Assembly (NCBI GenBank): GCA_947477885.1
Contig: CANJUD010000008.1
Location: 29,569-93,568, forward strand
Length of the DNA: 64,000 nucleotides
Origin: Bacteroidota bacterium
Lineage (GTDB): Bacteria; Bacteroidota; Bacteroidia; UKL13-3
Reading direction: 5' to 3'
Shown: positions 9,898 through 48,157 of the stretch, in pieces
Position numbering within the stretch: position 1 is the first letter of the stretch
How the letters are laid out: each line of letters starts with the position of its first letter
Translations under genes and position numbers: made by a program
The notes under the pieces: model-generated
What the model saw: the letters and a program-made list of their open reading frames with translations, nothing else
What the model was told of the DNA's origin: nothing
Database searches by the model: none

Positions 9898-10569
9898 TTA
9901 ATGTTTCACCACAAATTTTAAAGATTGTATTCTTTTACCATACGAAGTTAAATAATATATACCTTCAGCATAGTTTGAAACATCAATTCCTGAATTGTTA
10001 TAAGGTCCATTATAATATATCTTACCATCATTTGCAAATATTAAAATTGTAGTTATATCTAAATAATCTGTTGTGTTATTAATAAGTGCCATATTGTTAT
10101 TGGTAGGGTTTGGATATATGCTAATAGTAGGAACCAATATTGGTTGTGCTATAGTAACAGCTTTTACTCCTAAGGTTTGCGCATATTGATTCATATCTTT
10201 TTGTAGCAGTTTATAATACCAAGTTCCAGTTTGCCCGGTAAGTTGTTCAGAAAAACTATAACGTGCAGTTATAGTGCTGTTAACTTGTGCAGATAGTTCA
10301 CCTACATATTCAAATAGTATCCCATCTTTACTACGTTGTATTATAAAAAGTTCGGAATTTATTTCAGAATTTGTACTCCACTTAAGTGTGACAATTTCAT
10401 GGTCAATTTCAGCAGTGAAGCTGGTTAGCATTACTGGCAGAGCAATTGATTTGCTTGCAGTGCCTAAGGCATACCCATCGCCATTGCCTCCGTGGTACTT
10501 GTTTAGTGTTTGTGCTTTTACATGTAAGCTACAAATAATAATTGCGGTTGTTAATATTAAATTTTTCAT
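9898..10569 (-). CDS. Small T9SS type A CTD protein (short GGNGDGY N-terminal peptide, LPV Ig-like domain, CTD)
   Basis: Signal peptide; LPVMLTSFTA...W.T.SE.N...F.IQRS.DG..F; IYPNP...GIYYL. Confidence 0.85.
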   Translation of the reverse strand: MKNLILTTAIIICSLHVKAQTLNKYHGGNGDGYALGTASKSIALPVMLTSFTAEIDHEIVTLKWSTNSEINSELFIIQRSKDGILFEYVGELSAQVNSTITARYSFSEQLTGQTGTWYYKLLQKDMNQYAQTLGVKAVTIAQPILVPTISIYPNPTNNNMALINNTTDYLDITTILIFANDGKIYYNGPYNNSGIDVSNYAEGIYYLTSYGKRIQSLKFVVKH

Positions 10570-10654
10570 GAGTGAAATATGTTTAATGATGAATGATAAA
10601 TGATAAATTATGGATTATGGATGGTAAATTTTGACTAACTACTAACTACTAAAT

Positions 10655-33120: not shown

Positions 33121-34116
33121 ATGTCTGCTATTTCTATATATAATATCGATAAGTTTATTGAATTGGATATACCCACCATCGATGTTCGCAGCGAGGGCGA
33201 ATACGAGCAAGGACATATTGTAGGTGCTAATAATATCCCTATACTCAATAATGATGAACGAAGGCAAGTGGGTATTTGCTATAAACAAAAAGGCAATAAT
33301 GAAGCTGTGCTTTTGGGATACCAATTGGTTGAACATAAATTTAAAGATTATATAAAAAAAGCTATTGAAATAGCTCCCAATAAAACGATAGCAGTGTATT
33401 GCTTTCGTGGAGGGCAGAGAAGTGGCATTATGAGCGACCTGTTGCATCATGCGGGGCTAACTGTTATCAAACTGCAAGGAGGCTATAAATCCTATCGAAG
33501 ATATGCATTAAACACCTTAACCATTCCTAAAAATTTAATGATACTCGGTGGATATACGGGCTCGCAAAAAACTGAAAAACTCCACGAACTCAAATTGAGT
33601 GGCCAACAAGTAATAGACCTAGAAATGCTTGCCAACCATAAAGGTTCTGCATTTGGTGGAATTGGTGAAGAACCTCAACCTACTAACGAACAATTTGAAA
33701 ACCTACTTGCTGATGAATGGCGAAAAATTGACCCCCTAAAGCCATTATGGCTTGAAGATGAGAGCAGTAGAATTGGAAGAATCAATATACCTAAAAGTAT
33801 ATATATACAAATGCGTGAAAGTAGCATGGTGAAAATGATAGTAGATAAAATAAAACGCATTGATTATATATTATCCAGCTATGGCAAAATGCCTATTGAC
33901 AAATTACATGAAGCAACTCAAAAATTGGAACGCCGATTGGGGAACGAACAATGCAATGCCGCGTTAACCTATTTGCAAAATGGAGAACTGAGGGAATGGC
34001 TATATATTATATTGAAGTACTATGATAAAACATATGAATATGGAAATTCACTAAGAGACCAAAGCAAGATAGAAACTTTATCTGAAGCTGAATTTTATAA
34101 GAAATATAAAGCATAA
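33121..34116 (+). CDS. mnmH: tRNA 2-selenouridine synthase (SelU/MnmH)
   Basis: Rhodanese domain DVRS..EY..GHI.GA, VYCFRGGQRS, GGYKSYR; P-loop GYTGSQKT; DLE.LANHKGSAFG; EDES.RIG. Confidence 0.93.
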   Translation: MSAISIYNIDKFIELDIPTIDVRSEGEYEQGHIVGANNIPILNNDERRQVGICYKQKGNNEAVLLGYQLVEHKFKDYIKKAIEIAPNKTIAVYCFRGGQRSGIMSDLLHHAGLTVIKLQGGYKSYRRYALNTLTIPKNLMILGGYTGSQKTEKLHELKLSGQQVIDLEMLANHKGSAFGGIGEEPQPTNEQFENLLADEWRKIDPLKPLWLEDESSRIGRINIPKSIYIQMRESSMVKMIVDKIKRIDYILSSYGKMPIDKLHEATQKLERRLGNEQCNAALTYLQNGELREWLYIILKYYDKTYEYGNSLRDQSKIETLSEAEFYKKYKA

Positions 34117-34149
34117 AAAAAACCGTCCCAGTTATTGAGACGGTTTTTT
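34115..34149. terminator. Bidirectional rho-independent terminator
   Basis: aaaaaaccgtccca-gttat-tgagacggtttttt stem-loop (one mismatch) between convergent genes. Confidence 0.85.
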
Positions 34150-34165
34150 ATTTATTAAAAGATTA

Positions 34166-35611
34166 TTATTTGCTTACTACAAAACGCTGTGTGGTGCTAA
34201 ATCCATTCATGTTTAATGTGTAGTAATATACGCCGCTATTTAAGTCGCTGGTAGTTATATCAACACCGTTAACACCTTGTGCAAATTGACCGTTAGCAAT
34301 AGTTTTAACTACTTGGCCAAGGTTATTATAGATGCTGATATTGATGTTAGAAGTTTTAGCAAGTTCAAAAGGAATACGTACAATCTGACCGTTTGAAGGG
34401 TTAGGATAAGCCTCGCCCAATCTGAATCCTTTGTTTTCCAAATCAGCAATGCCCAAGTTCTTACATGAAACATAATAACGAAATACTGGGAATACAGGCA
34501 CACGCTCAGTACCTTGACTACGCGTATATATTAAAGTACCGGGAAAGTACATATCATGCAAACTTGTTGGAGGATATGAATCATAAAGTAAGCCTTCCAT
34601 GATGAATAACCCATTTTGATAAACCTTGTCGTTTTTAATGGGGATATTGGTATTGTCTTCAAACACGCGGGTTTGATCGTAAACAAATTTATAATAGAAC
34701 TGATTAAAACGATTGGCTATCGGAGCACCGTTAAATGAATCGGCTCCCAATGAATCGAATGGGGCTGTTTTGTTGTGCGAAGTTCCTGGCTCATATTTAG
34801 CCACTACTGCTGAACCCTGTCCGCTATTGGTATTAACTTGTTTGTTAACTACTAAAGTAAGCCAACGAGCATCATCTACTGAACTCGTGTCGCTTGAAGT
34901 TAAATCAAAAGTTTTTTCTACTGTAGCATTAGGTGCTGTATTGGTAGTATGGTCATAATTAGGGATACCTACTTCTGGGTATTCAGGTTTTGGGCCTCCT
35001 GCACTGCCAAAGCCACTTTTGTATTTAAAGTTACTATTGTTCAAATATTGCATAGTAACATGGTCGTTCACTGCTGCATCTGAACTTCTAATATACCAGT
35101 ATGGAAATTGAATAGAATCGATAGTATATATATTATACCTTCCTAACTGGAAATAATCTTGATTGGGAGATAAACTCCAAGCTAATGAGCGAGCATCAAA
35201 TGTAAAACCTACATTGAAGCTATAAGCCATGGCACCGTTGCTCACGTCTTGAGCGTAATCATTAAAGCTCCAAGCCGTATCGGAGGTTTGCGCAAAGTCT
35301 TTTGAAACAATTGTAAACGCAGTATCGGGCAACATCATCACTGCTTGTGTAAATGTTGGTTGTGCGGTACTTTGCTGATCGTAGTCGATAATGGCTTGTT
35401 TATAATCATACAAACCACTTACCATAGCAGCATTGGTTTTATTAGATACCACTACTTGCTTTTTTGTGGACTGGTTCACAATAAGTTTTGAATTGGCACG
35501 AGCGGTTTTTAGTGGATTAAAATCTATCGTTTTGATAGGGCTTTGCGAAGTTTGGGCTTGAGCAAATATAGCTGTTCCCAATAGCATTAAAATTAAGTAA
35601 CCTTTTTTCAT
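34166..35611 (-). CDS. Secreted protein with T9SS type A CTD, unknown N-terminal domain
   Basis: Signal peptide ending AQA; AYPNP...IYNNLGQ...SGVYYYTL...RFVV. Confidence 0.85.
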   Translation of the reverse strand: MKKGYLILMLLGTAIFAQAQTSQSPIKTIDFNPLKTARANSKLIVNQSTKKQVVVSNKTNAAMVSGLYDYKQAIIDYDQQSTAQPTFTQAVMMLPDTAFTIVSKDFAQTSDTAWSFNDYAQDVSNGAMAYSFNVGFTFDARSLAWSLSPNQDYFQLGRYNIYTIDSIQFPYWYIRSSDAAVNDHVTMQYLNNSNFKYKSGFGSAGGPKPEYPEVGIPNYDHTTNTAPNATVEKTFDLTSSDTSSVDDARWLTLVVNKQVNTNSGQGSAVVAKYEPGTSHNKTAPFDSLGADSFNGAPIANRFNQFYYKFVYDQTRVFEDNTNIPIKNDKVYQNGLFIMEGLLYDSYPPTSLHDMYFPGTLIYTRSQGTERVPVFPVFRYYVSCKNLGIADLENKGFRLGEAYPNPSNGQIVRIPFELAKTSNINISIYNNLGQVVKTIANGQFAQGVNGVDITTSDLNSGVYYYTLNMNGFSTTQRFVVSK

Positions 35612-35721
35612 TTTGTTTTTTTTTTGATTGATTATTTTGGCTTCAAAAATAAGTGATTTTTTTATGTAATCAAATAATTAACTCTTTTTATTACAAAATA
35701 GTTGCACGGGGCAAAAAATAA

Positions 35722-38097
35722 TTATTCCAAATCAATCACTGTTACTGCATCTCCGCCAAATTCAGGGGCTTCGTCCTGCAAATTCTTAACTGCCCTTATT
35801 TTTTTTAGTTCGCTCCTGATAAGTCTTTTAAGTATGCCTGCTCCCCTGCCATGCACTATGCGTACCCGCGAAAAATTGAGCATGATGGCCTCATCCAAAA
35901 AATGCATTACCTCTTGCATAGCCTCTTCTCCCCGCTTGCCTATTACATTTATCTCGGCATTAAAATGAGCTAACTTCTCATTCAAGTCCACTCCATTATT
36001 ATGACGTTTGAGAAGTTGGGATGATTTCTCTTCTTCAGGGGCCAGTTCCAATCTGTCCATATCAACCCAGGTTTTAATATTGCCCATCATCACCTCTACC
36101 TTGTTCTTTTTGATGGCCGATACTTCAACTATTGTTTGACTGTCTGGCATCTTCACTTTGCTGCCGATTAGAATTTTTAAATCGCTACTCGATAATTTAA
36201 TATCAGCTTGTTCTTCAGGCATCAGATTCAAAACCATTTCATCCAGATTCTTTCTCACAGATTTTGTGACTTCATTGCTTGCTTTATTTTCTTTGATCAA
36301 TTTAATGGTTTGCTCAATTTCCTTGTTCGCATTTTTAAGCAATTGCAATGCTTCGTTTTTGGCCTTTGAAATAATCTCTGATTTTGTTTTTGATAATTCA
36401 TTGCTCTGCTCTTCAAACTTTGTTTGCTTCTCAACAGATTTTTGCATCTGACTTTCCAAATCTTTTTTCAGATTTTTTATATATGTTTTTTCTCTTTCAA
36501 GTTCTATAATAAGTTTTTCAACCTGATTATGTTTGTTCCCCGATTTTTGTATTGCTTTTTGTATTATATCTTTGTCAAGACCTGTCTTTTGTGCTATCTC
36601 GAAGGTATAGCTGCTACCGGGCACGCCAGGTTCAAATTGGAATAAAGGAGCCAATTCTTTGCTATCGAACAACATACTTCCATTATATACACCATGCAGA
36701 TGTTGGGCAAGGATTTTTAAATTACTAAAATGTGTTGTTATAATACCATAAGCAAATTTCCGGTTCAATGCTTCTAATATTGCCTCAGCCATGGGGCCGC
36801 CCAATTGAGGGTCGGTGCCTGTTCCAAATTCATCAATTAAAAACAAAGTTTTTGAATGGGCAAATGTGGTAAAATGTTTCATATTCAACAAATGACTACT
36901 ATAAGTACTCAAATCATTTTCTATACTTTGCTGGTCGCCAATATCTATATATATCTGTTTAAACATGCCCATCTCACTGCCATCTTTGCAGGGCACTGGC
37001 AATCCATGCTGAAACATCATTTGTATCAATCCCACCGTTTTTAATAATACTGATTTTCCTCCCGCATTCGGTCCTGATATAACCACAATTCTTTTATCCC
37101 TATCCAATTCTATTGAAAGGGGAACTACTTGTTTCTTTTGCTTTTTTAAACTTATATATAATAGCGGATGCCGCGCATTCACTAATTTGAGTATCGGCTT
37201 ATCATGTATCTGTGGAGTTATACACTTTAACTCAATACTTAGCAATGCTTTTGCTCTGATAAAATCGAACATGCCCAATCTATCGCAACATACAGACAAC
37301 TCTGAAACATGCGGCATCACTAGGCTGGTAAGCTCTATCAGAATTTTTCGTATCTCTTTTTTCTTTTCATGATGCAGTTCAATGGTATAATTGTTCAGCT
37401 CAAAAATTTCACCCGGTTCTATATATAATGTTTGCCCCGTTGCCGATTCATCATGCACAATTCCGGGAATTTTTCTTTTATGTTCTGGAAATACTGCCAC
37501 CACTAATCTATCATTACGAATTGTGATAGTTGTTTCAGGTCCCCAATTATTTTCCGTAATATTTTTTGCTATGCTATTTATCCGTTTTCTAACCAAGTTT
37601 TCATTGGCAGAGATCTTACTATATAAGCCTTCCAACTCTTTGCTGGCATTGGGTTTCATCAGCCCGTTCACATCTATTTTGGTATTGATGGCATGGGTAA
37701 TATCATTAAACTGGTGCAGTCCCTCTGTTATCTTATATAACTCCGCAAATTGCTCTTCTTTTCCTTTAAAAAAATGTATAATACGATTCACTGTACTCAA
37801 CATATTTCGCAGCTCGTGCAACTCGTGTTCGCTGAGGTGAGCACCTTCAATATTTGCTTTGCTTATATATTCTTTTATGGGCAAATAATGTTCTGTAGGA
37901 AATACTAGAGCCGTACTAATAATCTCTACAAACTCATCGGTCTGCTTCAGCAATTTAGTAATCAATTTCGCATCGGATGTATACCGCATCTTTTGCACAT
38001 AGCCCTCCCCCATCGTGCTGATACACTTAGCCGCTAGCAGCGCACGTATCTGGTCGAAGCCAGTTTTTTGTTCAATATTTTCGGGATATAGACTCAT
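35722..38097 (-). CDS. mutS2: MutS2 family protein with C-terminal Smr domain
   Basis: HDESATGQTLYIEP, SGPNAGGKS, DIGDQQSIENDLSTYSSH, DEFGTGTDP, IVHGRGAG, GGDAVT. Confidence 0.95.
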   Translation of the reverse strand: MSLYPENIEQKTGFDQIRALLAAKCISTMGEGYVQKMRYTSDAKLITKLLKQTDEFVEIISTALVFPTEHYLPIKEYISKANIEGAHLSEHELHELRNMLSTVNRIIHFFKGKEEQFAELYKITEGLHQFNDITHAINTKIDVNGLMKPNASKELEGLYSKISANENLVRKRINSIAKNITENNWGPETTITIRNDRLVVAVFPEHKRKIPGIVHDESATGQTLYIEPGEIFELNNYTIELHHEKKKEIRKILIELTSLVMPHVSELSVCCDRLGMFDFIRAKALLSIELKCITPQIHDKPILKLVNARHPLLYISLKKQKKQVVPLSIELDRDKRIVVISGPNAGGKSVLLKTVGLIQMMFQHGLPVPCKDGSEMGMFKQIYIDIGDQQSIENDLSTYSSHLLNMKHFTTFAHSKTLFLIDEFGTGTDPQLGGPMAEAILEALNRKFAYGIITTHFSNLKILAQHLHGVYNGSMLFDSKELAPLFQFEPGVPGSSYTFEIAQKTGLDKDIIQKAIQKSGNKHNQVEKLIIELEREKTYIKNLKKDLESQMQKSVEKQTKFEEQSNELSKTKSEIISKAKNEALQLLKNANKEIEQTIKLIKENKASNEVTKSVRKNLDEMVLNLMPEEQADIKLSSSDLKILIGSKVKMPDSQTIVEVSAIKKNKVEVMMGNIKTWVDMDRLELAPEEEKSSQLLKRHNNGVDLNEKLAHFNAEINVIGKRGEEAMQEVMHFLDEAIMLNFSRVRIVHGRGAGILKRLIRSELKKIRAVKNLQDEAPEFGGDAVTVIDLE

Positions 38098-38134
38098 AAT
38101 TGGGGCTGCAAAAATATAGGGTTTTTGTGGAGGA

Positions 38135-38154
38135 TGGTTCGACTGCGCTCACCA
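38135..38154. repeat. Family B REP-like hairpin (reverse orientation)
   Basis: tggttcgactgcgctcacca, the reverse complement of tggtgagcgcagtcgaacca. Confidence 0.6.
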
Positions 38155-38338
38155 CCACAACTTAAGACATTATAACAGTTTGAGAGCAAGAGAATAGGGG
38201 AAGATTGCGTCAGCCCCCCGAATCCAGAATCCAGAAACCGCTTCGGTTCAAGCTTCGTAATCCCGCCCCCCTATTCCCATTTTCCAAATCCCAAATTCTC
38301 CCCTACTTTTGTCTCGGGCAATTTTTACTATTTGGGGC

Positions 38339-38881
38339 TTGAGGAAATTTTACAAGTTAAAACTATGGACATTGATGATGGCGTTAACAGCTATGGTCGT
38401 GTTTCCTGTGTTCGATGCTATAGCCCAGCAAGAGATTGACTACACCCTGCACGCCAAATTTATTTATCACTTTACCAAGTATATCCAATGGCCTGAAGAA
38501 AAAAGGACAGGCAATTTTGTAGTAGGTGTGGCAGGCAATGATGACGTTTATGCTGCCATGGATAGAATTGCTCAAATAAAAAAAATAAAAGGACAAAAAC
38601 TGGTGGTGCTAAAAATTAAAAATACCGACGATCCATCTAACTGCCACATTCTGTTTGTAGGTAAAGCGAAAAATTCCGCTTTGCCAGGATTTGTGCTAAG
38701 GATTGCAAATAAAGCAGTATTAATCATCACTGAAAAAAGCGGCTCAACCAGACAAGGTTCTGATATAAACTTTGTAATTAAAGATAATAACCTTAATTTT
38801 GAACTTAATTCGGCAGGTGTGTCCGGTAAAGGGATGGCAATATCTGGCGAATTAAGAAACCTTGCACTAAGAAATGAATAA
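38339..38881 (+). CDS. YfiR/HmsC family (DUF4154) periplasmic protein
   Basis: AKFIYHFTKYIQWP, CHILFV, VLIITE, INFV....L.FELN, ISGEL.NLA. The TACTTTTG box at 38304-38311 implies a start at TTG 38339. Confidence 0.9.
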   Translation: MRKFYKLKLWTLMMALTAMVVFPVFDAIAQQEIDYTLHAKFIYHFTKYIQWPEEKRTGNFVVGVAGNDDVYAAMDRIAQIKKIKGQKLVVLKIKNTDDPSNCHILFVGKAKNSALPGFVLRIANKAVLIITEKSGSTRQGSDINFVIKDNNLNFELNSAGVSGKGMAISGELRNLALRNE

Positions 38882-40883
38882 ACTTTACAGTCTAATATTC
38901 CTGCTACTTATATTGGGCTTAAGTCGTGCACAAGCTCAAATTGACACCAACGAGTTTAAGGAATTGGACGAGATTGATATATATAGTTTGCTTAAAGAGT
39001 CTGTATTTAAAAAAGTGGTGGTGCGGTTTGAAGAATCTCCAGGTAATCTCACTGAAATAAGTCATGAAGAATTTGCCAATCGTGGTGCCCGCGACCTAAT
39101 GGATGTGATGCGTATGATACCTGGATTTGAGTTTGCACAAAATATTAATGGCCAAATAGGAATGGGCTACCAAGGTATGTGGGCTCAACAAAATAAAATT
39201 ACGATATTGATTGACAATGTGGCCATGAACGATGGGCTGCAAGGTGGATTTGCTGCAGCACAGCGCATTTCTATTGATATGATAGAGAAGATACAAATTG
39301 TAAAAGGTGCAGGCTCTATCCAATTCCAAGGAGCAAATACAATGACCACAATCAATATTATAACACGTAGTGGAGACAAAATGGGAGGAGCAAGAATCGC
39401 ACTAAGCAATGGCACCTTCGATTCCACCTTTGCCCGCCGAGGTATATCGCTGGTGATGGGAGACAATCTGGGGAAAAACAAATACTGGAGTGTGATTGGA
39501 AGTTATAATAGTGGCAAAGTAACTAATATTGGCAAAATAAATCCAACAAGTCCCAGCTGGGAGCAGTATTGTAATTTGAGTGACCTATTTCTGTTTGCCA
39601 AACTTAAATTAAATAAATGGGACATTAAATATTTATTGAACAACTATAATAGTCAAGCTAGCATAAGGCAGTCGACAGTGAAAAGTTTGATTCAGAATTT
39701 TCAGGTGAGCAATGAGTTTAAAATTAAGAAAACAGATTTGGCCATTCTCCCTGTTCTAAATTTATCTGCGCAGTTGCCCATGAACTGGATAGTACAAAGC
39801 CTTATGGCAACCGACACCAATAATATGATGCAAACAAAAGCACAGGCACGCTTGATGTTAAAGCATACTTACGAAGATAATAAAATAAAATCACTATCAT
39901 ACTTTGGTATTGATTATAATTGGGAACAAAATACTTTATTGCAACATAAAACAAAATTGAATCCTTATACTTCAACTTCTCTTTATGCTCAGAATGTATT
40001 TCAAAAAAACTTGAGCCGCATATATATAAACAGACTATTGGTTAAAACTGGAATTAAAGCTGATATTCAATCGGGACAAAATATCAATATATCTCCCAAA
40101 ATTGGTATTGAATATTATTATAAGAATTTACAAATTAATGCATTTGCCGGACGCTATGGAATAAACCCCAATAACTATGGCAACTATTTAAATGCGAACT
40201 TAAAGCAAGAACAAATACAATCTGCTCAGTTTAGGGTGAATTATATATTCAAATCGAGTTGCAATATTGCTGCTAATTTGTTTATGAATAAGTCTACCAA
40301 TATGATATCTTTTATGGAAAAGGACTTTAAAGATACGTTTGTCAATATTGCTACGGCTGGTTCTCAGGGTATCGAGTTGGAATTTAATTGGAAGCTGATG
40401 GATGGGCTACATTTCAAATCGTATTATACTTATTTCCAAAAAGCCAACAAAGATTCAAACCAATATTCACTTGAATCGGGCAACAGCGGATTGTTGGGAT
40501 TTGCATCGCACAAACTATATGCATCGCTTCAATACAACTTGGTGAATCATTATTGGATTAATGTTAATGGGCAGTATTATAGTAAAATAACAGGTATCGA
40601 ATCAGGCGACCTTAAGCAGCAAAATCCTTTGCTCATGCTCGACTTGACAATGAGCTATTCGTCGCCCAAAAGCCCTATCGAAGTGCAAACAGGAATATAT
40701 AATATATTGAATCATAATTTCAAATATTTCCAAGCATATAATAACTCAAATAATATCGCAATGGGTATTAACAACCCCGTGCCTGGAGGTGGAAGGGAAT
40801 TGTTCCTCAAAATTATATTTAAACTCAGCTTCTACGACAACGATCACCAATCGTATAATTATTCTAATCCCATCATCTTTTAA
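38874..40883 (+). CDS. TonB-dependent receptor-like outer membrane protein (plug + barrel), short
   Basis: Signal peptide; plug motifs ESP..L..I..EE...RGARDL.DVMR.IPG, ILID, IEKIQIVKG.GS..., INIITR; C-terminal GIYNILN...GRELFL. Confidence 0.85.
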   Translation: MNKLYSLIFLLLILGLSRAQAQIDTNEFKELDEIDIYSLLKESVFKKVVVRFEESPGNLTEISHEEFANRGARDLMDVMRMIPGFEFAQNINGQIGMGYQGMWAQQNKITILIDNVAMNDGLQGGFAAAQRISIDMIEKIQIVKGAGSIQFQGANTMTTINIITRSGDKMGGARIALSNGTFDSTFARRGISLVMGDNLGKNKYWSVIGSYNSGKVTNIGKINPTSPSWEQYCNLSDLFLFAKLKLNKWDIKYLLNNYNSQASIRQSTVKSLIQNFQVSNEFKIKKTDLAILPVLNLSAQLPMNWIVQSLMATDTNNMMQTKAQARLMLKHTYEDNKIKSLSYFGIDYNWEQNTLLQHKTKLNPYTSTSLYAQNVFQKNLSRIYINRLLVKTGIKADIQSGQNINISPKIGIEYYYKNLQINAFAGRYGINPNNYGNYLNANLKQEQIQSAQFRVNYIFKSSCNIAANLFMNKSTNMISFMEKDFKDTFVNIATAGSQGIELEFNWKLMDGLHFKSYYTYFQKANKDSNQYSLESGNSGLLGFASHKLYASLQYNLVNHYWINVNGQYYSKITGIESGDLKQQNPLLMLDLTMSYSSPKSPIEVQTGIYNILNHNFKYFQAYNNSNNIAMGINNPVPGGGRELFLKIIFKLSFYDNDHQSYNYSNPIIF

Positions 40884-40895
40884 ATATCTACTAAT

Positions 40896-43037
40896 ATGGC
40901 AAAGCTAAGATTTGGGCTGAACGGCCAGATATTTACAGGTTTCTTTATCCTGGTATTCCTGCTGATGTTATATGCTATCGTTAGCTTTTTTGCTTTGAAA
41001 GCCAATACCAATATTTCTGAAAAGATATCGACGGTGGTTGCCCCATCCCTCGAGGCCGTGAATGACTTGGATAATATGGTGGTAAAATCGAGAATGCTTA
41101 CCATTACTTGGGTGCTATCGCAGCCTAATGACTATGATAAATCTGCATTAAAAAAACTTCATCAAACAGAATATAGACAAATAAAACAAAACATCAAAAA
41201 ACTAATGGCCAAATGGGATGACCCAAGTTCCGCAAAAGAGATGGATTCCGCATTTGTTTTGTTTGAAGTTATTCTAGGTTGGGAAAAAGAAATTATGGCT
41301 TACTTGCCCGATTTTAAATCCTATGAAATAGCGGAAGCCAAAATTGAAAGCAGTGATTTATTGGGCAATGTAATAGAACAATCGGATGAGCTTGCTGCAC
41401 GAGTTGACAAAATTAAAAAATTGAAATCGAAAGAGTTTGCTGAGAGCGAACTCATACTGTCAAAAACAGCAGATAATTTAAGATATAGTATTATAGGGCT
41501 TTCTATATTGTTCAGTATTTTGGGCGTTATCATATCTATATATATGGGTAACCTTATTACCAAACCCGTGGTGCAACTTCGTAATGTGATAAATCGTTTG
41601 AGTCGCGGAGAATTGGCCAAGAGCGACCTGCGTGTGAGCCAAAACGAAATTGGTAAAATGATACAATCGGTTGACATTCTTACCGAATCATTGAAGCAAA
41701 AAACACAATTTGCAAACGCGATAGGAACACGCAATTATGATGAACCGTTCAAACCCATCGGACCGCGTGACGATTTGGGAACAGCACTCATTTCGATGAG
41801 AGATAACTTAAAAAAGAATGAGTCGCAATTAATTGAAGCCAAAGATGCAGCTGAATCTGCCGACAAAGCAAAGAGCCAATTTCTAAGCAATATGAGTCAC
41901 GAGATTCGCACACCGATGAACGCCATCATTGGTCTCACAGAATTACTTTTACAAGAAAAAGAACTCGACGAAATGCAAGCCGACAATCTTCGTTCTATAC
42001 AATTATCAGCCGACAACTTATTAGAAATTATCAATGATATATTAGACATTTCTAAGATTGATGCTGGGAAATTGAGTCTGCAAACATCAGAATTTAATTT
42101 GAACGATGTATTACAACAAGTGCTTCGTGTGGCTAGTGTGAAAGCCAGTTCCAAAAAAATACAACTCAACAAATCTGTCGATACACGCTTGCCAATGATG
42201 CTGAAAGGTGATGCGGTTAGGCTTAATCAAATACTCATAAACCTTGTTGACAATGCTCTAAAATTCACAGAGAATGGCAACGTGGAAGTGAAATTAACCG
42301 CCAAGTCGCTGGATATACAAAATGCCAAATTAATTTTACATATAGAAGTAGTTGACACTGGAATTGGAATACCTCGCGAAAAATTCAACATTATATTCGA
42401 AAGTTTCCGTCAGATAAAAGACGAACACAATCGCCAATATGGTGGCACAGGTTTGGGCCTCGCCATTACCAACAAATTGGTTGAACTGATGAAAGGTAGA
42501 ATATGGTTGGAGAGTGAAGTAGACCGCGGAACTACGTTCTATATAGAGTTGCCTTTCGAGATATCAGAAAACTATATGAATGTGGCACAGTTTATCCAAT
42601 CGCCAGTGAAGATAAGCCCCGTGATGGAGAATACGGCCAATAACAAAAATTTTGCAGGCAGGCATTTCTTGGTTGTTGAAGATAATCTGATCAATCAGAT
42701 ATTGATGAAAGAGATTTTGAAAAAATGGAATGCTACCTTCGAGGTTGCTTCTAATGGTGTAGAATGCCTTAAATATATGGAGCAAAAAGAGTATGATGCG
42801 GTGCTAATGGATTTGCAAATGCCTATTATGGATGGCTATGAAGCTACGCAAAAAATAAGGCAGAGCCAGACTTATAAAAATCCACTAATACCGATTATCG
42901 CTATATCTGCAGATGCTTATGAAGCCACAAAAGTTAAAGCTCTTGAAACAGGCATGAACGACTATATCTCAAAGCCTTTTAGTAACGACGGACTATATAA
43001 TATCATTAATAAATGGATAGGCCGCAAAGCAGCGTAA
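40896..43037 (+). CDS. Hybrid sensor histidine kinase (2 TM, helical periplasmic sensor, HAMP, HisKA, HATPase, REC)
   Basis: FLSNMSHEIRTPMNAI, QILINLVDNALKFT, DTGIGI, GGTGLGLAI, VVEDN, MDLQMP.MDG, KPF. Confidence 0.96.
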   Translation: MAKLRFGLNGQIFTGFFILVFLLMLYAIVSFFALKANTNISEKISTVVAPSLEAVNDLDNMVVKSRMLTITWVLSQPNDYDKSALKKLHQTEYRQIKQNIKKLMAKWDDPSSAKEMDSAFVLFEVILGWEKEIMAYLPDFKSYEIAEAKIESSDLLGNVIEQSDELAARVDKIKKLKSKEFAESELILSKTADNLRYSIIGLSILFSILGVIISIYMGNLITKPVVQLRNVINRLSRGELAKSDLRVSQNEIGKMIQSVDILTESLKQKTQFANAIGTRNYDEPFKPIGPRDDLGTALISMRDNLKKNESQLIEAKDAAESADKAKSQFLSNMSHEIRTPMNAIIGLTELLLQEKELDEMQADNLRSIQLSADNLLEIINDILDISKIDAGKLSLQTSEFNLNDVLQQVLRVASVKASSKKIQLNKSVDTRLPMMLKGDAVRLNQILINLVDNALKFTENGNVEVKLTAKSLDIQNAKLILHIEVVDTGIGIPREKFNIIFESFRQIKDEHNRQYGGTGLGLAITNKLVELMKGRIWLESEVDRGTTFYIELPFEISENYMNVAQFIQSPVKISPVMENTANNKNFAGRHFLVVEDNLINQILMKEILKKWNATFEVASNGVECLKYMEQKEYDAVLMDLQMPIMDGYEATQKIRQSQTYKNPLIPIIAISADAYEATKVKALETGMNDYISKPFSNDGLYNIINKWIGRKAA

Positions 43038-43681
43038 AATTTAACCTGTACCCTACCCTTTTTGTTTTTTTATTGCCTATAGTTATATTAACTATTTGTA
43101 TTGGGGTATACGGCAACCATACTGCTTTCTTATATATTAATAACCATTTCCATTCTGGATTATTAGATACGCTGATGCCATTTATTACTATGATGGGCGA
43201 ATGGGTAGTAGTTATCCCTACTATCATTATCGTTGCATTTTTTAATTATAAACAGGCATTGGGAATTGCAATTTCTGGTATTGTTTCAATGATAGTTGTG
43301 CAAGGATTAAAAGAATATGTATTTGCTGATATGGCTAGGCCATCAGGTGTTTTTGCAAATGATTTATCTGTTCTGCACATTGTTGAAAATACAGATTTAC
43401 ATTCATGCTACACCTTTCCTTCAGGACACAGTGCTGGAGTTTTTATGTTGTGCATGTCTTTGGCATTTTATTTTAAGAATATAAATGTAACAATGGGATT
43501 GATATTGGTGGCTTGTTTAACGGGTTGGTCCAGAATGTATCTTGCCCAACATTTCCCAATCGATGTGGCAGTTGGCGCCCTTATTGGCATTGCTTCGTCA
43601 TACTTTATGGAAATTTGGATTTCTAAAACCAAGAAATTTAAAGGTGAAGCAAATTTTATGACACTTTTTCGCAAAAAATAA
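43013..43681 (+). CDS. PAP2 family membrane phosphatase
   Basis: K......RP, FPSGHS, SRMYLAQHFPIDV. Confidence 0.9.
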   Translation: MDRPQSSVKFNLYPTLFVFLLPIVILTICIGVYGNHTAFLYINNHFHSGLLDTLMPFITMMGEWVVVIPTIIIVAFFNYKQALGIAISGIVSMIVVQGLKEYVFADMARPSGVFANDLSVLHIVENTDLHSCYTFPSGHSAGVFMLCMSLAFYFKNINVTMGLILVACLTGWSRMYLAQHFPIDVAVGALIGIASSYFMEIWISKTKKFKGEANFMTLFRKK

Positions 43682-43795
43682 ATAGCTGAATAACAACACT
43701 ATATAGCAACTGATGCAATTATCAAAATCAACACTTATTGCAGAGTACTATACAAAGCATACATTTGTCGACTCAAAAAAAAGTATAGAAAAAGT

Positions 43796-44119
43796 ATGGA
43801 TGACTACAACCAGGACAGGAACATTGTATTTTCGAGAAAAGTAAAGGCCGGAAAAAGGACCTATTTCTTTGATGTGAAAACTACCAAGGGTAATGATTAT
43901 TACATAAACATTACCGAAAGCAAAAAGAATTTGGATGGAGGTTTTATGAAAACCAAAGTGTTCTTATACAAAGAAGACTTCAATAAATTTATGGATGGCC
44001 TGCAAGAAACTGTTTCATATGTAAAAAACGAGTTGATGCCCGACTATAATTTTGATGAGTACCAAAGGCCTGAATATAATGCCACTCCGCCTGCCGAAGA
44101 GGACTTTAACCAAAGCTAA
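43796..44119 (+). CDS. DUF3276 / PUR-family nucleic-acid-binding protein
   Basis: FSRKVKAGKRTYFFDVK.T...DYY..ITESKK, FLYKEDF.KF; TACATTTG promoter box at about 43760. Confidence 0.9.
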   Translation: MDDYNQDRNIVFSRKVKAGKRTYFFDVKTTKGNDYYINITESKKNLDGGFMKTKVFLYKEDFNKFMDGLQETVSYVKNELMPDYNFDEYQRPEYNATPPAEEDFNQS

Positions 44120-44135
44120 TCCACCAATTGTATAT

Positions 44136-44172
44136 AAAAAAAATGCGACGCACTAGAGTCGCATTTTTTTTT
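44136..44172 (+). terminator. Rho-independent terminator
   Basis: aaaaaaaatgcgac-N8-gtcgcatttttttt. Confidence 0.85.
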
Positions 44173-44206
44173 ATCCCTGTTTTTTAACTAGGTTTGCAAC
44201 ATCACA

Positions 44207-45031
44207 ATGACCGCATACGAAATTCAGGCTGCTAGCTATAACGATGATATAAGCCATCTGTTGGACTTATATATCAAATTGGCCGACCGTGAAATGGCCT
44301 ACGGGCTTTATGACCCTAAGTTTTCATCCTTCATTGCACTGAAATCGTTCCCGCTATCAACCCCAGATGATTTGCGAGACATTGTAAACCACGAATTCAC
44401 TAAAACATATCGCAGTTCAAGAATTATTATAGAGAATAACCAATCGGCACTATTCCCTGAAAATTTGTTTGACCGCAATAAAGCCAAAGATATTTTTTCA
44501 TTTACAACACCTTTTAATGCCAACGAAGAAACATTATATACTGACCACTTAAAAACTAGTGGCATGCTGAATGTGTTCAAAATATCAAACCTACTTAAAG
44601 AAATCATTACCCCATATTTTCCGCAAGCAAAAATTACACATTATGCCACAGCACTGCTATCAGGACTAATGGTGAATAGTAATGATGAAACTGAATTTAC
44701 AGCACATGTTAATCCCGATTTTTTTCATATTGTAATTACCAAAAACAATAAGCTAATTTTCTGTAATTCCTTCGAGTATGAAACTATTGAAGATATACTA
44801 TATTATATATTAGCCAGCTACGAACATTTTGAATTTTCGCCTAAAACGCAACCCCTAAAACTATATGGCTCTATCAATCGGTTTGATGAATTGAAAGATT
44901 TGCTGAATACCTATATCATGTTTACAGAACTTGGCGAACGCCCTGCCAACTTTTCTTTCGACAAGGCATTTGACCAATTGCCCGAGCATTTATATTTCCC
45001 GCTTTTATCATTGCCCCTGTGCGAATCATAA
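44207..45031 (+). CDS. DUF3822 family protein
   Basis: LFPENLF, L.FCNSF....EDILYYIL motifs; usual position upstream of rsmD in Bacteroidota. Confidence 0.8.
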   Translation: MTAYEIQAASYNDDISHLLDLYIKLADREMAYGLYDPKFSSFIALKSFPLSTPDDLRDIVNHEFTKTYRSSRIIIENNQSALFPENLFDRNKAKDIFSFTTPFNANEETLYTDHLKTSGMLNVFKISNLLKEIITPYFPQAKITHYATALLSGLMVNSNDETEFTAHVNPDFFHIVITKNNKLIFCNSFEYETIEDILYYILASYEHFEFSPKTQPLKLYGSINRFDELKDLLNTYIMFTELGERPANFSFDKAFDQLPEHLYFPLLSLPLCES

Positions 45032-45558
45032 GTGGAAAATATCGTGGCCATGTGCTCCGTCCTCCCACAGGATTGCCTGTTAGACCCACTACTGACCGAG
45101 CCAAAGAAAGTTTGTTCAATATATTAGAAAACAAATATTATATAGATGAACTAAATGTACTGGATTTATTTAGTGGTACCGGTAATATAGCTTTTGAATT
45201 TGCAAGCCGCGGTGCCATTGAAGTAATTTGTGTAGATAAATATCCGAAATGCTGCAAGTATATATATGCTGAAGCTCAAAAAATTGGGCTCAATCAAATA
45301 CATACCGTTACCGAAGATGTAATACACTTTATCAAAAATTGTCCTACTCAATACACTATTGTATTTGCTGATCCACCCTATGAAATGGCCAATCAAGAAG
45401 ATATAATCGCCCTGATATTTGAAAAAGAATTGGTCAAAAAAAATGGGATGCTTATATGGGAACACCACAAAAATCTGAATTTTAAAAACCTAAAACACTA
45501 TAGCGAAACGCGGAACTATGGAGATTCGGCATTTAGTTTTTTTGCAATCAATGAATAA
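45019..45558 (+). CDS. rsmD: 16S rRNA m2G966 methyltransferase
   Basis: MRIISG..RG, RPTTDRAKESLFNIL, LDLFSGTG, FADPPY, R.YG. Confidence 0.93.
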   Translation: MRIISGKYRGHVLRPPTGLPVRPTTDRAKESLFNILENKYYIDELNVLDLFSGTGNIAFEFASRGAIEVICVDKYPKCCKYIYAEAQKIGLNQIHTVTEDVIHFIKNCPTQYTIVFADPPYEMANQEDIIALIFEKELVKKNGMLIWEHHKNLNFKNLKHYSETRNYGDSAFSFFAINE

Positions 45559-47398
45559 TATATTATTATATATATGCTCGTCATTGGGACTGTATGCCGT
45601 CATTGCGAGGAGGCTTCCGACGTGGCAAATTTCAATTCGACGCAGTCAATCCCATGGTGTGTGTGCTCGGAAATTTAAACTCGCCGAGCATACACTCGAG
45701 GAGATTTCCACGTCGCCCTTCGCACCGCTCCTTGCAATGACGCGTAAGGGGTTAGTTTTCCTCCTTCCCCTTCTATTATACACCCTCCCATCCTACTCCC
45801 AATCCGATTCAACAATTACGATATATCACAATGCCACTATATATAGTGTCGATAGTCTGTTTACCAAGTATGATGCAATGGCAATTGTTGAATATCCATT
45901 GAATGAAAAGAAAAATAAAATTTTAGCAACAGGGCAAATTGAAAAACTAAAAACAAAATATCCGAATGCAATTTTAAATAATGTAAAAGGTAAATATATA
46001 TATCCTGGTTTTATTGATGCTCATTGTCATTTTTTTGGATTGGGTGTGAGTATGCAAATAGTTGACCTGGTAGGAACAAAAACATACGAAGAAGTATTAG
46101 AACGGTGTAAAAAGTATTATAATACCAACAAAGGAAACTACCTGATGGGCCGTGGTTGGGACCAAAACGACTGGCCTAAAAAAGAATATCCTACTAATGA
46201 GCAATTGAATTTACTTTTTCCTGATATTCCAGTTGTATTAAAACGAATAGATGGTCATGCCGCATTAGTAAATAAGAAAGCATTGGCAATAGCAGGAATT
46301 AAAAAAGGAACAAAAATTAAAGGTGGTGAAATTATATTAAAAGATGGAAAACCAACAGGAGTTCTAATTGACAATGCTGTTGATTTGGTGATGAAAGTAA
46401 TCCCCAAAATGAGTGATATACAAATTAAACTTGCAGTGGAACAAGCCGAAAAAAAATGTATATCAGTGGGCTTGACCAGTGCGGTTGATGCCGGATTGGA
46501 GATGGACACTATATATAAAATTGCTAAATTTTTAAGGGATATAAATGTATATGCCATGCCAATGTTCACAACTGATTTTATTGAATCGCACGATGCTAAT
46601 ATCGACCATCCCATAGACTATGATAAACTGCATTTAGATGGCGTAAAAGTATATATAGATGGTGCACTCGGCTCGCGTGGTGCATTATTATTAAAACCCT
46701 ATAGTGATAATCCAAAATCATATGGATTAGAATTAAAAAGCTATAAGGAACTTCAAAAAATATTTCTATGGTGTGCCGAATACGGATACCCACTCAATGC
46801 CCACTGTATAGGCGATTCAGCCACTCGCATATATTTTAAATTGATAGAAGAATTGAAACCCATCTTGAAAAAAAATATATATAAATGGCGAATCGAACAT
46901 GCACAGGTTGTTGACACAAATGATTTACACAAGTTTAAAAAGTATGGCATCATACCTTCAGTGCAACCCACCCATGCTACAAGTGATATGTATTGGGCTG
47001 AAGAGCGATTGGGCAAGCAACGCGTAAAAACCGCCTATGCCTATAAAGATTTATTAAAAGCAGCTGGCGTAATTGCACTTGGCACCGATTTTCCTGTGGA
47101 AGATGTAAATCCATTATATACATTTACCTCAGCCGTATGGCGAATGGATAGCAATGAATTCCCAAAAAACGGTTTCCAAATAGAGAATGCACTCACCAAA
47201 GAAGAAGCCCTGAGAGGTATGACAATATGGGCAGCATACAGTGTGAATGCCGAACGATATACTGGCAGCCTAGAACCCAACAAACAAGCCGATTTCATTA
47301 TCTTTGATACCGACCTCATGAATGCCACTTTTAAACAATGTAGAAATGCTAAAGTGATTGGAACTTATATAAGGGGGAAACGGGTATATAGTAGATAG
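45551..47398 (+). CDS. Amidohydrolase 3 (YtcJ-like) secreted metallo-hydrolase, with a palindromic element in frame in the N-terminus
   Basis: PGFIDAHCH, GRGWDQN, RIDGHA, K.YIDGALGSRGA, HCIGD, RIEHAQ, QPTH, GTDFP. ATG 45551 overlaps the rsmD stop; alternative ATG 45737. Confidence 0.92.
   Translation: MNNILLYICSSLGLYAVIARRLPTWQISIRRSQSHGVCARKFKLAEHTLEEISTSPFAPLLAMTRKGLVFLLPLLLYTLPSYSQSDSTITIYHNATIYSVDSLFTKYDAMAIVEYPLNEKKNKILATGQIEKLKTKYPNAILNNVKGKYIYPGFIDAHCHFFGLGVSMQIVDLVGTKTYEEVLERCKKYYNTNKGNYLMGRGWDQNDWPKKEYPTNEQLNLLFPDIPVVLKRIDGHAALVNKKALAIAGIKKGTKIKGGEIILKDGKPTGVLIDNAVDLVMKVIPKMSDIQIKLAVEQAEKKCISVGLTSAVDAGLEMDTIYKIAKFLRDINVYAMPMFTTDFIESHDANIDHPIDYDKLHLDGVKVYIDGALGSRGALLLKPYSDNPKSYGLELKSYKELQKIFLWCAEYGYPLNAHCIGDSATRIYFKLIEELKPILKKNIYKWRIEHAQVVDTNDLHKFKKYGIIPSVQPTHATSDMYWAEERLGKQRVKTAYAYKDLLKAAGVIALGTDFPVEDVNPLYTFTSAVWRMDSNEFPKNGFQIENALTKEEALRGMTIWAAYSVNAERYTGSLEPNKQADFIIFDTDLMNATFKQCRNAKVIGTYIRGKRVYSR
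45598..45742. repeat. Family A palindromic element inside the 5' coding region of the amidohydrolase gene
   Basis: Begins cgtcattgcgaggaggcttccgacgtggcaa (near-identical to the left arm of the 24729-24872 copy) and ends ctccttgcaatgacg. Confidence 0.85.
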
Positions 47399-47422
47399 TA
47401 TAAAGTATAAAGACAGTGATAA

Positions 47423-48157
47423 ATGATAAATATGTTACTTAAAACTTTAAAGTACCCAACTCCCCTATCCTTCGGAAAGGTCCCGGATCTTATTCGGGAG
47501 GGGGTGAGGCTTTGCGGCAGCCCTGTGCGTAAAATCCACTTTCTTTTTCTCCTCTTCACTTTATTATATATAATACCTTCCAATATCTTTTCACAACAAG
47601 CAAAATTTAAAGCAAGTTTTGGCCTTAGTTTATCGCAGATAGATAATGATGGCATGAGTGGTTATCACAAAAACGGATTAACTGCTGGATTAGCAACACA
47701 GTTCCCTCTCAAAAAAAATATGTTATGGTCAATAGGTTTGAAATACGTGAACAAAGGCAGCAAAAAAATATACGGTGAATTTGGCCCAGTTGGGGGAAAT
47801 GGGAAATGGGAAATCGCCAGATTACAATACATTGATGTGCCACTTACTTTTACTTATGTATATAAGGACAGATTTCATATAACGACAGGACCCTTAGCAG
47901 GTATATTAACAGGTGGCAATATAGAATTTACTCCTTTTACCAAAACTCCGGCACTTGATGTATTTAAACGTGTTGAGGCGGCTTGGATTTTATCTGCATC
48001 CTATAATTTTACCAATAATTGGTTTGTTCAGGTATCAACTGAGACCAGTTATATTTCTATAACCAAAGGTGATAATCGTCCCCATTTTCAAAGATATTTT
48101 GGACATATGAATGATAATATTTTGATTGAATTGGTAAAGGTTTTTGATAGTAAATAA
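47423..48157 (+). CDS. Outer membrane beta-barrel (porin-like, OMP_b-brl_2 type) protein
   Basis: G...SQID.D...GY.K.G..AG, L.Y..KGS, L.YIDVPL; start uncertain (47423, 47432 or GTG about 47525). Confidence 0.75.
   Translation: MINMLLKTLKYPTPLSFGKVPDLIREGVRLCGSPVRKIHFLFLLFTLLYIIPSNIFSQQAKFKASFGLSLSQIDNDGMSGYHKNGLTAGLATQFPLKKNMLWSIGLKYVNKGSKKIYGEFGPVGGNGKWEIARLQYIDVPLTFTYVYKDRFHITTGPLAGILTGGNIEFTPFTKTPALDVFKRVEAAWILSASYNFTNNWFVQVSTETSYISITKGDNRPHFQRYFGHMNDNILIELVKVFDSK
47459..47509. repeat. Family C element carrying a family D insert
   Basis: actcccctatccttcggaaagg-[TCCCGGATCTTATTCGGGA]-gggggtgagg. Confidence 0.6.

Follow-up and report, generated by a model that had tools for sequence, protein, structure and literature searches.

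YfiN, the effector of the YfiBNR system, is an inner-membrane diguanylate cyclase with the domain order CHASE8-HAMP-GGDEF. To our knowledge YfiR proteins are known only as repressors of such cyclases, and TonB-dependent receptors (TBDRs) are known to signal inward only via pairs of an anti-sigma factor and an extracytoplasmic function (ECF) sigma factor. In YfiBNR, YfiR acts on the inner-membrane enzyme (PMC4655355, PMC13591309). The present analysis concerns a window of 64,000 nucleotides from a Bacteroidota bacterium (GenBank assembly GCA_947477885.1, contig CANJUD010000008.1, positions 29,569 to 93,568), in which four consecutive genes encode a YfiR-like periplasmic protein with a DUF4154 domain, a TBDR, a hybrid histidine kinase and a PAP2-family membrane phosphatase. 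An earlier note made from the letters of this DNA had described the first three as an operon, in which a TBDR and a kinase would stand in for the lipoprotein and cyclase of YfiBNR and a free YfiR protein would shuttle between them. The operon is a real but divergent variant of a catalogued cassette, from which it differs in its gene order, in the four-helix bundle of its sensor and in a conserved PAP2 gene. It is somewhat probable that the four genes encode a diverged version of an envelope sensor of three parts that is widespread, and in which the signal would pass from the TBDR through the YfiR-like protein to the kinase.

The four open reading frames (ORFs) form a same-strand run with near-zero spacing, and are located at 38309/38339-38881, 38874-40883, 40896-43037 and 43013-43681 in the ORF list. 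The YfiR-like and TBDR genes overlap by 8 bp, the TBDR and kinase genes are separated by a 12-bp gap, and the kinase and PAP2 genes overlap by 25 bp. The gene coordinates, the 8-bp overlap and the 12-bp gap of the earlier note are correct by this list, and its three domain calls (YfiR family, TBDR and hybrid kinase) are right by Pfam. Its trio is also confirmed; the fourth gene (PAP2, 43013..43681) had been overlooked.

The first gene (38339..38881, forward strand) encodes a YfiR-like periplasmic protein with an N-terminal signal peptide, matching Pfam PF13689 (DUF4154, 'YfiR/HmsC-like') with an E-value of 1.2e-32. The start of the gene is uncertain, and may be the TTG at 38339, giving a lysine-rich start to the signal peptide, or the ATG at 38375 or 38378; clusters of 167-aa homologues agree with a start at 38378. 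By profile comparison the protein is a distant relative of YfiR, since a profile of its homologues matches the solved YfiR structure (4yn7) with an E-value of 1.1e-4. The NCBIfam equivalog model of YfiR (NF053586) gives 33.5 bits on the window protein with a cut-off of 85. The best NCBIfam match is NF053591 ('TOL_0243 family YfiR-like periplasmic protein') at 112.1 bits, close to its cut-off of 125 and below it. This is the only DUF4154 match in the genome, and the distribution of the domain is patchy: in a sample of the Bacteroidota phylum it is present in 35 of 401 genomes, and in 29 of the 180 genera.

The second gene (38874..40883, forward strand) encodes a TBDR of 669 aa, comprising a signal peptide, a plug (Pfam TonB Plug, E 2.7e-12) and a full beta-barrel. 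The AlphaFold2 model (predicted TM-score, pTM, of 0.81; mean predicted local distance difference test, pLDDT, of 77.2) contains both plug and complete barrel, and the label 'TBDR-like' used in the earlier note was right in kind and too cautious. Searched with Foldseek, the model superimposes on PfeA, BtuB and FepA (E about 1e-27, TM-score about 0.70). Neither Pfam nor the model contains an STN signalling domain. Between the signal peptide and the plug lies an N-terminal segment of ~35 residues that is disordered in the model (pLDDT <50 for residues 14-57). It includes a short hydrophobic V-V-V stretch ahead of the plug, for which there is no consensus by which to score a TonB box. The NCBIfam model NF053590 ('TOL_0244 family TonB-dependent receptor') matches the plug region only, at 50.5 bits with a cut-off of 645. 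At the C-terminus (40841-40883) an extra tail of ~14 residues, modelled with low confidence, extends past the last barrel strand and ends in phenylalanine; it occurs in this genus.

The third gene (40896..43037, forward strand) encodes a hybrid histidine kinase of 713 aa, with Pfam matches to HAMP, HisKA (1.1e-21), HATPase_c (7e-31) and Response_reg (2.9e-27). From the N-terminus the order is a first transmembrane helix (TM1, residues ~12-34), a periplasmic four-helix bundle (~35-196; nucleotides about 40998-41483), a second transmembrane helix (TM2, ~197-220), HAMP, HisKA, HATPase and receiver. Residues 1-290 are modelled as entirely helical with a mean pLDDT of 86.5, and this model, together with Pfam, bears out the helical periplasmic sensor and HAMP domain that had been read from the sequence. 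The best Foldseek matches of the sensor model are fragments of NarQ comprising sensor, transmembrane helix and HAMP (E 2.6e-3). Nothing was found at E ≤ 0.001, and the matches to NarQ and to chemoreceptors are at the level of the fold only. No Pfam match to CHASE8 or GGDEF is present in the kinase. Compared by hhalign with CHASE8-type sensors, the window-type sensor gives a probability of 97%, though largely through TM2 and HAMP, and homology of the periplasmic domains was rejected. In the model the sensor of the window kinase is a four-helix bundle, unlike the Pfam CHASE8 sensor of other DUF4154-linked kinases. The NCBIfam model NF053592 ('HK_near_YfiR_like', cut-off 194 bits) has no match at E ≤ 0.001 genome-wide, nor is it among the matches of kinase residues 1-320.

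The fourth gene (43013..43681, forward strand) encodes a PAP2-family membrane phosphatase of 222 aa (Pfam PAP2, E 2.2e-18) with weak NCBIfam matches to undecaprenyl-diphosphatases. In locus L131, from another genus, a PAP2 gene lies at 10252-10848, in the same place after the kinase, and the TBDR is 27% identical to that of the window. Loci L022 and L023 each have a 222-aa ORF in the matching position. PAP2 is probably the fourth gene of the operon. Its product may serve the system as an output or as an accessory, lipid A and undecaprenyl-phosphate chemistry being examples of where it might act.

Conservation of the cassette was examined from the side of the TBDR and from the side of DUF4154, with gene calls in both surveys made by a simple ORF script (ORFs of 90 aa or more, the longest being kept and overlapping ones discarded greedily). 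Among 41 relatives, full-length matches to the TBDR are found in all three same-genus genomes and in two other genomes (27% and 25% identity), with partial matches in two more. The YfiR-like and TBDR genes are kept together in 3 of 3 same-genus genomes; the kinase gene is next in two of these, and the third locus ends at the end of its contig. The order YfiR-like, TBDR, kinase is retained in L131 (TBDR 27% identical) and L132 (25%), and L131 keeps all four genes, PAP2 included. In the phylum sample 17 of 401 genomes, including that of the window, match the TBDR at E ≤ 1e-10. Seventeen regions were fetched, from 13 of the 16 other genomes of this sample (G423, G339 and G209 being dropped) and four from relatives. 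By Pfam, DUF4154 adjoins the TBDR in 12 of the 17 (L120-L122, L124-L126, L128-L132 and L134), and a kinase is present too in nine (L122, L124-L126 and L128-L132); L121 has the YfiR-like protein and TBDR with no adjoining sensor. Beyond the family of the window most loci run TBDR, DUF4154, kinase, and a receiver gene is often next. Pfam matches CHASE8 in six of the nine kinases, those of L124, L125 and L128-L130 being above or near the cut-off (L129 just above). Five of the 17 regions lack DUF4154; two (L123 and L133) contain SpoIIE sensors instead, and in three (L127, L135 and L136) the TBDR matches only weakly and the neighbours are unrelated. In the dropped G339 a DUF4154 match is found downstream of the TBDR frame, at a distance of no more than about 0.3 kb. 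The trio therefore recurs across Bacteroidota, in two gene orders, and the lack of conservation that the earlier note had held up against its own reading is refuted.

The neighbourhood has also been catalogued before, since NCBIfam models bear its names. The accession series holds NF053591 for the YfiR-like protein, NF053590 for the TBDR and NF053592 for 'HK_near_YfiR_like'. These models are annotation tools, and to judge by their names curators had already modelled a neighbourhood of YfiR-like protein, TBDR and kinase. NF053589 and NF053593, considered as further members of the set, are unrelated families. No experimental study of a unit of TBDR, YfiR-like protein and kinase was found in the literature, subscription journals not being covered. 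With named models for all three proteins, the system is less new than had been presumed.

The element TACTTTTG (38304..38311, forward strand) is a match to TAnnTTTG, which we take to be the -7 promoter motif of Bacteroidota, and lies in the intergenic stretch of 210 bp that follows the divergent MutS2 gene. With 100 occurrences in the window where shuffling predicts 98.1, the motif is at chance frequency, and the match is therefore suggestive by position only: the motif alone is no evidence, and it is its location in the intergenic gap that fits a promoter. The promoter named in the earlier note is thus present as a motif that is no commoner than expected. A separate TAnnTTTG at 43760 lies ahead of the gene that follows PAP2, and scans for promoters and terminators gave nothing above shuffles that is relevant to the operon. 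The chance frequency of the motif would suit a reading in which the genes are chance neighbours, or share a promoter and have no functional link. This is contradicted by the conservation data, since adjacency persists where the TBDR is only 17-27% identical to that of the window (alignment A2), in many families and in two gene orders; gene fusions exist, and NCBIfam models are named for the neighbourhood. A lack of any functional link is very improbable indeed.

The DUF4154 survey comprised the best 80 of 558 confirmed loci, one genome per species and all from Bacteroidota records, with Pfam run on the two ORFs downstream of each DUF4154 gene. In 58 of the 80 loci there is a downstream membrane sensor with the N-terminal sensor and HAMP module of the window kinase, and it is the output that varies. 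A hybrid kinase is the output in four, following a TBDR in three (L022, L023 and L075) and following the YfiR-like gene directly in one (L024). The YfiR-like gene is followed by a protein comprising the four-helix bundle, HAMP and GAF(-PAS) in 22 loci, and by a secreted protein of 293-400 aa and then a HAMP-SpoIIE phosphatase in 29; in the remaining three the contig end cuts the sensor. The loci outside the 58 comprise five with a TBDR and no sensor (L028, where this occurs twice, L049, L067, L089 and L096), one with a 299-aa middle ORF followed by the contig end, 15 with another partner or none, and L033, for which the ORF script gave no DUF4154 ORF. In all a TBDR adjoins DUF4154 in 8 of the 80. 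The N-terminal 290 residues of the window kinase align with 36 DUF4154-adjacent sensors at a mean column identity of 45% (alignment A3). On the basis of these alignments the common unit is a YfiR-like protein together with the sensor module, the cytoplasmic output being interchangeable, and the sensor module is of shared ancestry across the DUF4154 loci. The suggestion that a kinase here replaces the cyclase fits both surveys, in which DUF4154 precedes membrane sensors with many outputs and is fused to kinases.

A tree of 98 YfiR-like proteins was built by a quick method and midpoint-rooted for drawing only; the fused forms (L120, L126 and L137-L141) and L033 were excluded. Partner type clusters on the tree, with 19 label changes compared with a shuffled mean of 56.9. 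Because relatives share labels, the clustering is read as vertical inheritance of whole modules and not as co-evolution. The window protein lies in a clade (starred in the tree) with L022, L023 and L131, all of them trios, and with L024, which has the kinase only; L132, also a trio, is next. The CHASE8-type trios form long, deep branches.

Several features of the surveyed loci lie to one side of the argument. The 22 GAF-type loci (within L026-L087, e.g. L030:7947-11205) are mostly from Cytophagales, Cyclobacteriaceae and Roseivirgaceae and their sensors have no recognisable output domain; a Tll0287-like ORF is often next, with a lipobox in 4 of 4 inspected. The 29 SpoIIE-type loci (within L039-L100, e.g. 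L058:7914-11127) are from Vicingaceae or Flavobacteriales, SpoIIE being a PP2C phosphatase. Their middle proteins have Pfam TPR repeats in about half the cases and a signal peptide without lipobox in 15 of 15 inspected, and many of these loci have a conserved upstream block of a kinase, a response regulator and three small ORFs. The SpoIIE-type locus looks like a YfiR-controlled input to partner switching. L075 (5237-11980, Flavobacteriaceae) has two YfiR-like paralogues, of which the first precedes the TBDR and the second follows it, ahead of a GAF hybrid kinase. In L099 (7989-12933) cas9 and cas1 closely follow a DUF4154 gene, which is probably coincidental.

DUF4154 is also found fused to its presumed partners on both sides. 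Six DUF4154-kinase fusions were identified (L126:7966-10296, L137:3884-6016, L138:3728-6109, L139:1208-4510(-), L140:2222-4540(-) and L141:3902-5833). All six comprise a signal peptide, DUF4154, a linker, one transmembrane helix and the kinase, with DUF4154 as the sole periplasmic domain, and a TBDR gene directly precedes five of the six, the exception being L139 (8.4 kb fetched). The linker is 147-156 residues long, free of proline, and 43-51% charged or glutamine (n = 6). If helical, ~150 residues would span about 22 nm, which is about the width usually quoted for the periplasm, and would place the DUF4154 head at the outer membrane; the uniform linker is a candidate for a periplasm-spanning ruler. 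Because the fused heads are tethered to the kinase on a stalk of ~150 residues, the free YfiR shuttle envisaged in the earlier note is not general. A word-indexed search for longer, fused homologues of the window protein returned none, which is weak evidence; the fusions were found by other routes.

The second kind of fusion joins DUF4154 to TonB_C, a domain that binds TonB boxes. The order CarboxypepD_reg, TonB_C, DUF4154 is found in P0028/P0030, P0028 being encoded at L120:8146-9450(-), directly upstream of a TBDR gene, and the order DUF4154, TonB_C in P0163. The word-indexed search for a TonB_C-DUF4154 fusion returned its own cluster only. Joining a TonB-box binder to DUF4154 would also suit control from the inside outwards, in which the YfiR-like protein mainly regulates the TBDR, one way being competition with TonB over the TonB box, while the kinase only adjusts its level or availability. 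The loci with a YfiR-like protein and TBDR that lack an adjoining sensor (L121 and those listed above: L028, twice, L049, L067, L089 and L096) could be accommodated in the same way. Three observations point in the other direction. The best conserved of the DUF4154 partners is a sensor whose input is periplasmic and whose outputs are cytoplasmic (58 of 80 loci); as the only periplasmic domain of the fused kinases DUF4154 stands in the place of an input and not of an output; and in YfiBNR it is the inner-membrane enzyme on which YfiR acts (PMC4655355, PMC13591309). Control of the TBDR by the YfiR-like protein is accordingly improbable.

Contact between the TBDR and the YfiR-like protein was examined by complex prediction, using residues 22-669 of the TBDR (alignment A2, containing 21 DUF4154-linked TBDRs) and residues 30-180 of the YfiR-like protein (alignment A1). 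The score was 0.58 (0.58, 0.56 and 0.58 in separate runs), classed by the tool as 'weak support', and the best of three controls scored 0.00. At least 88% of the contacts recur between runs, and the partner has a pLDDT of at least 86. Of 157 solved complexes 116 attain this mark, compared with 2 of 215 mismatched pairs; with a score of ≤0.60 it is attained by no more than 18 of the solved complexes and by both of the passing mismatches, and with our own alignments in use these counts are only a rough calibration. Given the prior from adjacency and fusion, the score is a modest push toward direct contact. The link from TBDR to YfiR drawn in the earlier note is favoured by adjacency, by the TonB_C/DUF4154 fusions and, at this lesser strength, by the prediction.

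The DUF4154-linked TBDRs share a signature at their periplasmic N-terminus. For 5 of 5 scanned, the best NCBIfam model is NF053590, matched via its first ≤187 positions with 105-172 bits. An 'S-L-E-E-L'-like motif is present in all 17 DUF4154-linked TBDRs of alignment A2 that are from outside the genus of the window. It is located right after the signal peptide and before the first strand of the plug (alignment columns about 85-125, corresponding to 38940-39050 in the window). The motif is found in 0 of 12 unlinked TBDRs of relatives; these controls are few and exclusivity is not claimed.

The main rival to signalling by contact is a relay of the ligand itself. In this scheme the TBDR is an ordinary importer, and the YfiR-like protein captures what is imported and presents it to the four-helix bundle of the kinase in the manner of TorT/TorS or LuxP/LuxQ, never touching the TBDR. 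The fold of the TBDR is that of true transporters and it has no signalling extension. The kinase scores well over most of its length on the TorS and LuxQ models of NCBIfam (342 bits for TIGR02956 on residues 36-708, and 330 bits, respectively), and in most loci pairs of YfiR-like protein and sensor work without an adjoining TBDR. Solved YfiR reportedly binds small molecules. Against such a relay, the TonB_C/DUF4154 fusions point to action at the periplasmic face of the TBDR, as do the uniform stalks of ~150 residues, which would keep the head well away from the inner membrane. The conserved N-terminal signature of the linked TBDRs would be needless in a pure importer, and the complex score, in the class of weak support as it is, had controls of 0.00. 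A ligand relay is rather unlikely on this balance.

A number of observations weigh against the preferred reading, in which the YfiR-like protein reads the state of the TBDR by contact and passes it to the kinase. The TBDR of the window has, as modelled, the fold of an ordinary transporter, and it may serve as an importer alone. It is the weakest match to the cassette signature, its 50.5 bits tying with a model of ordinary ligand-gated channels, and the TBDRs of its genus hold only a degenerate form of the 'S-L-E-E-L'-like motif. The complex score lies in the weak band of the tool and no interface was returned. Fusions of TonB_C with DUF4154 are uncommon. Of 8345 matches to P0028 the best 150 mostly cover only its first ~285 residues, and among these 150 Pfam confirms both domains in P0030, the cluster of the query itself, and in P0163 only; the match of P0032 extends into the DUF4154 part, yet Pfam shows no DUF4154 there. 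In 72 of the 80 DUF4154 loci there is no adjoining TBDR, and L024, which is in the YfiR clade of the window, is a YfiR-like protein and kinase without one; because most DUF4154 loci, L024 included, lack an adjoining TBDR, the receptor is dispensable for some relatives. Finally, the best 80 of the 558 loci lean toward relatives of the query, and both surveys cover Bacteroidota only.

From the genes, domains and folds, the conservation of the cassette, the ancestry of the sensor and the fusions of DUF4154 to kinases and to TonB_C, we infer the following contacts, direction of signalling, ligand and output. Starting at the cell surface, the TBDR would bind a ligand and change state at its periplasmic face, formed by the flexible N-terminal segment with its putative TonB box and by the plug. 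The YfiR-like protein would read this state through direct contact and would shift its hold on the four-helix bundle of the kinase, causing switching through TM2 and HAMP. The phosphoryl group would then pass from the conserved histidine to the receiver of the kinase itself and on to a partner encoded elsewhere, possibly a single stand-alone Hpt protein, and PAP2, which would be co-expressed with the other three, may adjust the phosphate of envelope lipids. Pfam finds no Hpt domain in the kinase, and neither a response regulator nor an Hpt gene adjoins the operon (12 ORFs scanned, 33121-48157), as had been noted earlier. The only Hpt match in the genome is a stand-alone ORF of 112 aa on another contig (G000:C14:27991-28212(-), corresponding to L102:1444-1782(-)), flanked by a family-2 glycosyltransferase gene and an amino-acid kinase gene. 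It is possibly a relay partner of the hybrid kinases.

Upstream on the other strand is a MutS2/Smr gene (35722-38097(-)), and the neighbours downstream are DUF3276, DUF3822, an RsmD-like methyltransferase and an amidohydrolase. Among the neighbours Pfam finds neither an anti-sigma nor an ECF sigma gene, and no OmpA-family gene is present in the 12 ORFs between 33121 and 48157, the stretch to which this search was confined. Also just upstream, at 34166-35611(-), is a gene whose product ends in a C-terminal sorting domain for type IX secretion. These two upstream genes and a G+C content of ~36% are in keeping with Bacteroidota. The genome of 3.1 Mb (25 contigs) is 99.9% complete. Positions 38300-43700 are found wholly or partly in 20 sequencing rows from 11 studies, almost all of them metagenomes of freshwater, lake water or drinking water. 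At least half of the words of this segment are present in 10 rows from four studies, of which 8, from two studies, may be the source DNA. The host appears to be an uncultured freshwater bacterium. In the metatranscriptome run X20 short contigs from a related strain lie over parts of the kinase gene, and none lies on the YfiR-like or TBDR gene. One of these contigs (42990-43155) spans the junction of the kinase and PAP2 genes; the library may contain DNA, and neither expression nor co-transcription is concluded.

A broader proposal can be put forward, tentatively and at a little less than even expectation. DUF4154 would be a general adaptor that reads the state of the TonB box in a dedicated class of TBDRs on behalf of interchangeable transducers, comprising histidine kinases, PP2C phosphatases, GAF/PAS proteins and the cyclase of YfiBNR. 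This would constitute a second, sigma-factor-independent form of cell-surface signalling. The fused stalk of ~150 residues would serve as a ruler (~22 nm if helical) that sets the DUF4154 head against the outer membrane, and the window operon would be the split version, with a four-helix-bundle kinase and with PAP2, a co-expressed lipid phosphatase, as part of the response. If the proposal is true, many bacteria have a second way of sensing the outside without importing the signal, and YfiR proteins gain a role broader than the repression of cyclases. The window would provide a clean and compact example of the split version, made up of four genes in a genome with no other DUF4154 match.

The operon can be compared with several kinds of known system. 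The first is the set modelled in NCBIfam, with which it shares three kinds of protein encoded side by side by adjacent genes. The window proteins are all below the cut-offs of these models (112.1 compared with 125 bits, 50.5 compared with 645, and no match compared with 194), and the window differs in having the order YfiR-like, TBDR, kinase, a sensor that is a four-helix bundle, and PAP2 as the next gene. As a putative outer-membrane input to a trans-envelope signal the TBDR resembles the receptors of FecA-FecR-FecI and FpvA-type signalling, but it lacks an STN domain, having only ~35 residues before the plug, and no anti-sigma or ECF sigma gene adjoins it; its signal would pass instead via a soluble DUF4154 protein to a two-component kinase. 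TorT-TorS and LuxP-LuxQ share with the proposed circuit an accessory protein in the periplasm that acts on the periplasmic domain of a hybrid kinase, whereas in the window the accessory protein is DUF4154 and not of the periplasmic binding-protein fold, and a TBDR is co-encoded. The TBDR has a plug inside a full beta-barrel as in TonB-dependent transporters, and the kinase has the HisKA, HATPase and receiver domains of hybrid-kinase phosphorelays. YfiBNR (TpbB/DgcN; Pseudomonas aeruginosa and Escherichia coli) and HmsCDE (Yersinia) likewise combine a DUF4154 protein, an inner-membrane enzyme with a periplasmic sensor and HAMP domain, and an outer-membrane component. In the window the output is a hybrid histidine kinase in place of the GGDEF cyclase, the sensor is not CHASE8, and the outer-membrane partner is a TBDR of the 22-strand type in place of the OmpA/Pal-like lipoprotein YfiB.

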